Below, one piece after another: positions 18,593 through 63,856 of a stretch of DNA of 64,000 nt. Below the pieces are notes generated by a model. That model worked only from the letters and a program-made list of their open reading frames with translations. It was not told the origin of the DNA and did no database searches. Each line of letters starts with the position of its first letter. Position 1 is the first letter of the stretch. Origin of the DNA: Octopus vulgaris (lineage: Eukaryota). The position numbers were made by a program, and so were the translations under genes. The DNA lies in the NCBI GenBank assembly GCA_951406725.2, contig OX597842.1, positions 8,494,001-8,558,000 of the forward strand. Reading direction: 5' to 3'.

Positions 18593-18652
18593 TTTCGTTT
18601 CGGGATTTGGTTTGCAAGATTCTTTATATGAGTTCGTGTATTGGAGCATATT

Positions 18653-18923
18653 CTGTTGTGTCAGGGGAGAGTCATTCTCTTTTAATGCCTTATTATTTAA
18701 CACAGTCACCAGTAAAATTTCCACTTATTTCTTATTTTTATTTTCCTAAAATTTTTGTTGCGTCTTGCGACCTTTTCAATAGTCTTTTCAAGTTCAAGAC
18801 TATTGAAAAGGTTGCAAGACGCAACGAAAAATTTAGGAAAAAAAAATAAATAAGTGGAAATTTTACCGGTGATTGTGTTACATTATAAGGCACTAAAAGA
18901 AAATGACTCTCCCCAGACACAAC

Positions 18924-18926
<3 letters not shown>
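18653..18926. repeat. Fold-back element (about 130-bp arms) in (TA)n
   Basis: ctgttgtgtcaggggagagtcatt...ttcaatagtctt is mirrored by aagactattgaa...aatgactctccccagacacaacag. Confidence 0.9.
18800..18836 (+). ncRNA. Hammerhead-like fold with U3:A8 core variant
   Basis: CTA-TTGAAAA-G GTTGC AAGAC GCAAC-GAAA AA TT-TAG. The mirror copy at 18746-18782 has the palindromic AATT stem III but G12>A. Confidence 0.45.
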
Positions 18927-18960
<34 letters not shown>

Positions 18961-59619: not shown

Positions 59620-62700
<3,081 letters not shown>

Positions 62701-63478: not shown

Positions 63479-63599
63479 ATATACACACACATATTTAGAA
63501 GTGTGTCTTTGTAGGCAGCTCTAGTAAACGGAAACTGAAAGAAGCCTGCTGTGTGTGTGCATATATATATATAGTACAAAGTATATATATAGACAAAGT

Positions 63600-63650
63600 T
63601 TTGTCAGTGAACAGGTTGCGGTCTCAAAGCGCCGAAAATATTTTGACAAA
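63600..63650 (+). ncRNA. Hammerhead fold with G3:C8 swapped core
   Basis: TTTGTCA-GTGAACA-GGTTGC GGTCTCAAA GCGCC-GAA AATATT T-TGACAAA. 7-bp stem I and palindromic AATATT stem III. A second family copy at 60787-60938 is truncated at GAAA. Confidence 0.6.
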
Positions 63651-63856
63651 TTAAATTTAAATGTTGAAGTGAATCTAACGGTTTTTGTGTGTTTCTTAAA
63701 TGGTTTATAAACACCTTCCATGCTGCAATTGTTTTCGTTCCAGCACATGATCTCAGATCAGGTCACTTGCTATGCAAGTACATCTCCGTAATATATATAT
63801 ATAGCGTGTAAAAATTACCTATTAAAGGTAGTTTTCTCTTGTGTTTAAATGTACAC

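Follow-up and report, generated by a model that had tools for sequence, protein, structure and literature searches.

The hammerhead motif near the end of the window, which is the whole stretch of 64,000 nucleotides of Octopus vulgaris DNA analysed here, has a G3:C8 pair in its core that is the family state of a Penelope-like element (PLE) with thousands of genomic copies. We judge it reasonably probable, taking the reading as a whole, that the window holds a decayed solo pseudo-LTR (pLTR) of this G3:C8 family, and that intact elements likely cut themselves slowly, as dimers and probably with the aid of protein. All the listed marks of a PLE minimal hammerhead are present save for the swapped 3-8 pair.

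The initial annotation described a 7-bp stem I, a GUGAACA core, stem II, GAAA, AAUAUU and U17, and our inspection bears out each of these elements. It overlooked an extra G after A9 and the damage to stem II, which reads GTTGC/GCGCC in the window copy compared to GTCGC/GCGAC in the family majority, so that one pair becomes a U·C mismatch and another a U·G wobble. The majority stem II has 5 bp, with G10.1-C11.1. U4, G5, A6, A9, G12, A13, A14, A15.1 and U16.1 are all present and positions 3 and 8 could form a Watson-Crick pair, with GUGAACA standing in place of the literal CUGANGA core (C3, G8), and there is a short palindromic stem III, AAUAUU, with an NUH site at U17. At -0.2 kcal/mol the AAUAUU duplex is weak, and the minimum-energy fold extends stem I by G3·U17. 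A UUU triplet is a weak hammerhead cleavage site. As a lone copy with a damaged stem II, the window copy is probably catalytically inert.

Table 1. Positions of the hammerhead and of related PLE sequences in the window.
Feature	Position	Strand	Remark
Solo pLTR of PLE, slightly 5'-truncated, flanked by (TA)n runs	63593..63791	+	95% to family copies
Hammerhead stem I, 5' strand, TTTGTCA	63600..63606	+	7 bp
Core GUGAACA (DNA GTGAACA)	63607..63613	+	G3 = 63607, C8 = 63612; family majority
Extra G between A9 and G10.1	63614	+	typical of PLE minimal hammerheads
Stem II and loop	63615..63633	+	63615-63619 with 63629-63633
G12-A13-A14 (GAA)	63634-63636	+	
Palindromic stem III, AATATT	63637-63642	+	
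U17	63643	+	
Predicted cut	between 63643 and 63644	+	inferred from hammerhead numbering
Hammerhead stem I, 3' strand, TGACAAA	63644..63650	+	
First 30 codons of PLE ORF	63700..63791	+	stop at codon 17 in window copy
Optional PLE tail, between two preferred copy ends	about 63735-63791	+	copy-end clustering
Same pLTR, 5'-truncated copy	60783..60943	+	begins within stem II 3' strand; without core
Sister PLE family copy, U3:A8 core UUGAAAA at 18803-18809	18600..18927	+	inverted partial copy precedes

The repeat carrying the motif is ~207 bp long, and the window copy aligns with the pLTR of a full-length element, L232. The last 30 codons of the repeat are the start of the ORF in L232, and this start continues as an RT/GIY-YIG frame in L231 and L232. 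Both pLTRs of L232 contain the motif, are identical at 516/517 aligned bases and read GUGAACA; the motif is also in the 3' pLTRs of L231, L242 and L243. Among copies in the fetched loci, 99/219 end at base 207 and 66/219 at 145-151, and 70/131 loci have a head-to-head partial copy. These two ends and the inverted partial copies match the tail and the inverted structures of PLEs. Flanking direct repeats of at least 7 nt, some of low complexity, border 12/32 full solo copies. Direct pLTRs, inverted 5' partial copies, an optional tail and AT-rich targets, all marks of EN+ PLEs, are thus found together. A branch-point, a pyrimidine tract and AG lie just 5' of the usual start of short copies, and in full-length elements the splice-acceptor-like site is ~15 nt upstream of the hammerhead; we infer that an intron ends at this site of the pLTR. 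An intron of Drosophila Penelope (D. virilis) is reported to end near helix I (PMC4209133). The second, truncated copy of the same pLTR in the window is uninformative on positions 3 and 8, as it does not include the core. On the minus strand just past the window end, a long exon-like frame (L042:1821-3689) has a weak match to cortactin-binding protein-2, and the window pLTR copy lies 3' of this frame on the opposite strand.

The full-length elements were reached through a sister with a canonical core behind a GIY-YIG frame. This led to a 1,309-aa ORF, and a search with its N-terminus recovered the G3:C8 elements. The 1,025-aa open frame of L242 contains GIY-YIG (E = 1.8e-5). A Pfam search scored no RT domain in the L242 or L232 ORFs; RVT_1 was matched in 5/19 aligned homologues, and BLASTP gave E = 4e-15 to an ORF with both RT and GIY-YIG Pfam matches. 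In the PDB, a single ORF query returned 0 matches and a profile query two weak RT matches. From its visible motifs, homologues and BLASTP match, the predicted protein is the RT of an EN+ PLE with a C-terminal GIY-YIG. Its best named homologue, from Octopus vulgaris, is 54% identical. A CX3CX2C linker precedes GIY-YIG, as described for Neptune/Nematis, whereas PAc, the Poseidon element from Anolis carolinensis (Frangieh et al. 2024, PMC11167929), is of the Penelope/Poseidon clade. A PLE ORF near one copy (L051, L112 family) was dropped from consideration, since it belongs to another family with another pLTR. L112 itself (G000:C1:37062500-37068500) is from a young PLE family with a 775-aa RT and GIY-YIG frame, and our search pattern detected no hammerhead in its pLTR.

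The initial annotation had left it to be seen whether GTGAACA is the consensus of the genomic copies, and it is. We searched the 2.8-Gb genome for exact matches to a 17-mer around the core with positions 3 and 8 free and obtained 7,447 matches, of which 6,746 (~90%) are G3:C8; the reversed G3:C8 17-mer, as a control, gave 1 match. G3 is combined with another base at position 8 in 422 of the 7,447 matches, and 19 are C3:G8. We considered the latter as revertants and rejected this, as the 10/19 examined all belong to sister families. None of 40 of 48 differences listed from contigs of four runs, from four organisms, changes position 3 or 8, and in runs from three organisms the loose-end consensus lines also read GUGAACA. 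Divergence from the majority is 1.4% in the youngest G3:C8 subfamily and ~5% in older ones, and G3:C8 is retained across several subfamilies with changed loop II. Because G3:C8 is the majority state among the family matches, with no variants at 3 or 8 among the differences listed, it is a family state inherited from master elements and not a product of decay. The argument that two random decay mutations would hardly produce the exact swap was therefore misframed.

Stronger support for selection on the pair comes from the sister lineages, since three of them have three different Watson-Crick pairs. A C3:G8 sister PLE lineage has 1,484 genome matches with A9, and a U3:A8 sister lineage accounts for 94/100 matches listed, of at least 2,991. 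In a quick IQ-TREE tree of 42 rows, covering loci with at least 330 aligned residues, the G3:C8, C3:G8 and U3:A8 lineages form one clade versus homologues from other sources (SH-aLRT 100), and the sister-lineage proteins are 54% identical over 814 aa. The 3-8 pair is Watson-Crick in 13/13 distinct rows (C:G 7, G:C 3, U:A 3); these rows were chosen by core and so demonstrate the three states and not their frequency. One old copy in the U3:A8 clade, L237, reads C3·A8. U4, G5, A6, the extra G, G10.1, C11.1, G12, A13, A14, A15.1 and U16.1 are constant at the family level, the extra G after A9 being invariant in 14/14 rows of alignment A1, and stem II has compensatory changes among lineages. The flanks are randomized: the spacer to the start codon has 37 matches, the mean for shuffled sequence being 36.6 (one lineage pair), and the 20 bases upstream of the motif have 5-7/20 matches between lineages. 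With three pairs in three sister lineages, the rest of the core unchanged and the flanks random, the 3-8 pair covaries. Judged from these comparisons it is likely that selection has kept the pair, and selection on the hammerhead fold is well supported. From the published consensus we infer that C3:G8 is the ancestral core. L045, L051, L175 and L196 contain two further hammerhead-like families, unrelated to these, that have U3:A8 cores and were each observed twice.

The G3 copies that do not have C8 are not evenly distributed. G8 is found in 38/100 listed of the 422, an estimated ~160 G3·G8 copies compared to 28 expected from background decay (a C>G background of 13 in 3,353), or a ~6-fold excess; the mirror single change, C3:C8, accounts for 7/100 listed of 218. 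The G3·G8 copies are scattered over the older subfamilies, with 0/32 in the youngest versus 29/84 in other copies of the sample, and do not support a single clade; two are in ORF-bearing loci (L241 and L254). They may be relics of a master-derived intermediate, or may mark a mutation hot spot. Three G3·A8 copies lie ~3.4 kb apart on one strand (G000:C2:171239233, 171242643 and 171246098).

These elements can be compared with several described systems. PLE minimal type I hammerheads in metazoan pLTRs have the consensus CUGANGAH and are marked by one additional nucleotide between 9 and 10.1; U3-A8, in Schistosoma Cercyon, is the sole 3-8 covariant that the available text names (PMC4209133). The octopus family has in common with them the pLTR site, the 9a nucleotide, G10.1-C11.1, a short palindromic stem III, mostly solo copies and a splice acceptor near helix I, and differs in having G3:C8 as a family state. 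Natural U3-A8 core variants have also been described as a compensatory 3-8 change (Perreault et al. 2011, PMC3088659); U3-A8 stands alone in the available part of that report, whereas here a single genome has G:C, U:A and C:G, each in one of three sister lineages. PAc resembles our family in that its pLTR hammerhead lies at the ORF start or immediately ahead of it, a tail is delimited by two copy ends, targets are AT-rich and uncut RNA serves as template. However, the PAc G3:C8 is engineered and PAc belongs to the Penelope/Poseidon clade; its C3G/G8C double mutant partly rescues the hammerhead, the property of engineered G3:C8 mutants that the initial annotation had cited (PMC11167929). Non-LTR retrozymes are likewise short, non-coding, hammerhead-bearing repeats linked to PLEs, but they are head-to-tail tandems with mostly canonical cores (PMC7229834; bioRxiv 10.64898/2026.07.22.740005). 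In contrast, the copies here are dispersed, end in the PLE ORF start and, in the window and in the fetched loci, are solo or head-to-head, with no head-to-tail monomers among them. The largest catalogue of such hammerhead variants is reportedly that of Lunse et al. 2017. A natural G3:C8 was not found in the hammerhead literature searched; this catalogue or supplement file 1 of PMC4209133 may list one. Within that literature, natural U3-A8 and the PLE minimal hammerheads were already known, and natural G3:C8 as a family state would be new.

How such a core could have arisen and worked can be set out as a model. A swap from C3:G8 to G3:C8 would have passed through a mismatched step, with G3·G8 as the candidate intermediate, and selection acting on this tertiary pair in the master elements would explain why the mismatch was compensated. 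For extended hammerheads it has been proposed that G12 acts as general base and that the general acid is the 2'-OH of residue 8, and 3-8 is published as a structural pair; C at position 8 should be tolerable because it is this 2'-OH that acts and the pair is structural, so that C8 could serve in catalysis if paired with G3. With stem III a six-base palindrome, the motif would have to pair with another copy, the simplest source being the second pLTR of a tandem transcript; two AAUAUU stems on the same transcript, one from each pLTR, would then pair and complete the fold, with the cut predicted after U17. U17 avoids a Watson-Crick G3-C17 pair and is also found in the sisters; one paper states, with its data not shown, that a G3-C8 variant had higher activity with G17 than with C17, which fits a G3-C17 trap. 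Minimal hammerheads are reported to cut poorly, dimers included (PMC4209133), and the PAc hammerhead to cut only with protein present (PMC11167929). On balance our analysis favours, with some confidence, slow, dimeric, protein-aided cleavage by the G3:C8 family. We put forward tentatively, as a rather unlikely but fuller version, that the natural G3:C8 hammerhead is active, that its clade has sampled three of the four Watson-Crick pairs at 3-8, that the ~130 surplus G3·G8 copies are fossils of the intermediate and that U17 serves to avoid the G3-C17 trap.

The fold, including the 3-8 pair, might instead be kept as structure, for instance as a protein-binding site, an aid to folding of the RT template or a signal adjoining the splice acceptor and the start codon, with negligible cutting. 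Genomic copies indeed derive mostly from uncut RNA: 126/219 begin within the first three bases, which lie 59 nt upstream of the predicted cut, and there is no pile-up at the cut itself, where 1/219 copies begin, the same copy being 1 of the 31 that start 3' of the core. These counts are biased, since the presence of the core was the reason for choosing most loci. Cutting is probably an accessory to copying, as most copies still contain sequence 5' of the cut. PAc hammerhead mutants were without effect on in vitro insertion and no RNA-seq reads ended at the PAc cut site (PMC11167929). A thriving sister lineage points the same way, since A9C is found in 88/100 matches listed, of 4,201, in the youngest C3:G8 sister, which has many near-identical, intact ORFs, showing that a core change is compatible with spread. 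Changing A9 is reported to have cost an artificial ribozyme at least 20-fold in cleavage, although such a change is found in a functional natural one. What speaks for catalysis is that G12, A13, A14, U4, G5 and A6 are fixed amid randomized flanks, which is the pattern that catalysis requires, and that the related PAc hammerhead cuts with protein. We regard a purely structural role as unlikely. The initial annotation had attributed the swap to selection for catalysis; selection on the fold holds up, as the three Watson-Crick pairs in sisters attest, and the catalytic part is conjectural given the spread of A9C, the G3·G8 excess and the PAc insertion data. A young PLE family with 1,309-aa ORFs and A9C fixed (L186, G000:C1:59391500-59401499, and relatives) is probably active at present. 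In run X8, guessed to be RNA, L025:1491-1700 has A>G at 14 places versus 2 in the other three runs, which would fit A-to-I editing of head-to-head copies; the pattern was less clear on a second look (3-6 places).

Relaxed constraint offers a different history, in which a master element drifted in two steps, regained pairing by luck and was amplified along with its core, with little bearing on present function. The excess of G3·G8 copies over the older subfamilies and the fixation of A9C in a sister would both follow, and there are only two independent double changes, of a kind that yields a Watson-Crick pair in 1/3 of cases. However, both double changes fell on positions 3 and 8 and both re-pair, with a rough post-hoc chance of 4e-5 for ~11 core positions and two events, C3:G8 being assumed ancestral, and unrelated hammerhead families in the fetched loci also have C:G or U:A at 3-8. 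This makes relaxed constraint quite improbable in our estimate. A chance look-alike, held in place by pLTR signals for the promoter or for splicing, would be allowed by the 0 matches of an Rfam scan of the 64-kb window (no hammerhead family at gathering score), the ordinary folding energy of the 61-nt window stretch (z = -0.60; 47/200 shuffles equally stable) and the nearby splice-acceptor-like site. It is very improbable: the sisters, which at the homologous pLTR position have a canonical CUGANGA core and the same stem II, already largely refute it, the stems covary (85.9% of cells paired versus 25-48% when slid; the three U3:A8 rows of alignment A1 are offset by two columns in stem I), and the descriptor gave 139 matches in 1.32 Mb of loci, enriched by selection, versus 3 after shuffling. 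The case against chance thus comes from the family counts and the position in a PLE pLTR, and not from the folding of the window copy.

The 3-8 pair of the hammerhead was originally established with engineered double mutants, and a natural G3:C8 family with thousands of copies would confirm a third type of pair by evolution. Descriptors that demand CUGANGA miss such families, so counts of hammerheads in animals may be underestimates, and claims that some PLE clades lack hammerheads may likewise fall short. As four natural cores (C3:G8, U3:A8, G3:C8 and A9C) occur on related elements in one genome, cleavage can be compared with transposition success. If the G3:C8 ribozyme is active and its intermediate preserved, the octopus elements would preserve, in a form that can be replayed, how the active site of a ribozyme evolved by compensation in nature, and would allow ideas on the purpose of PLE hammerheads to be tested.
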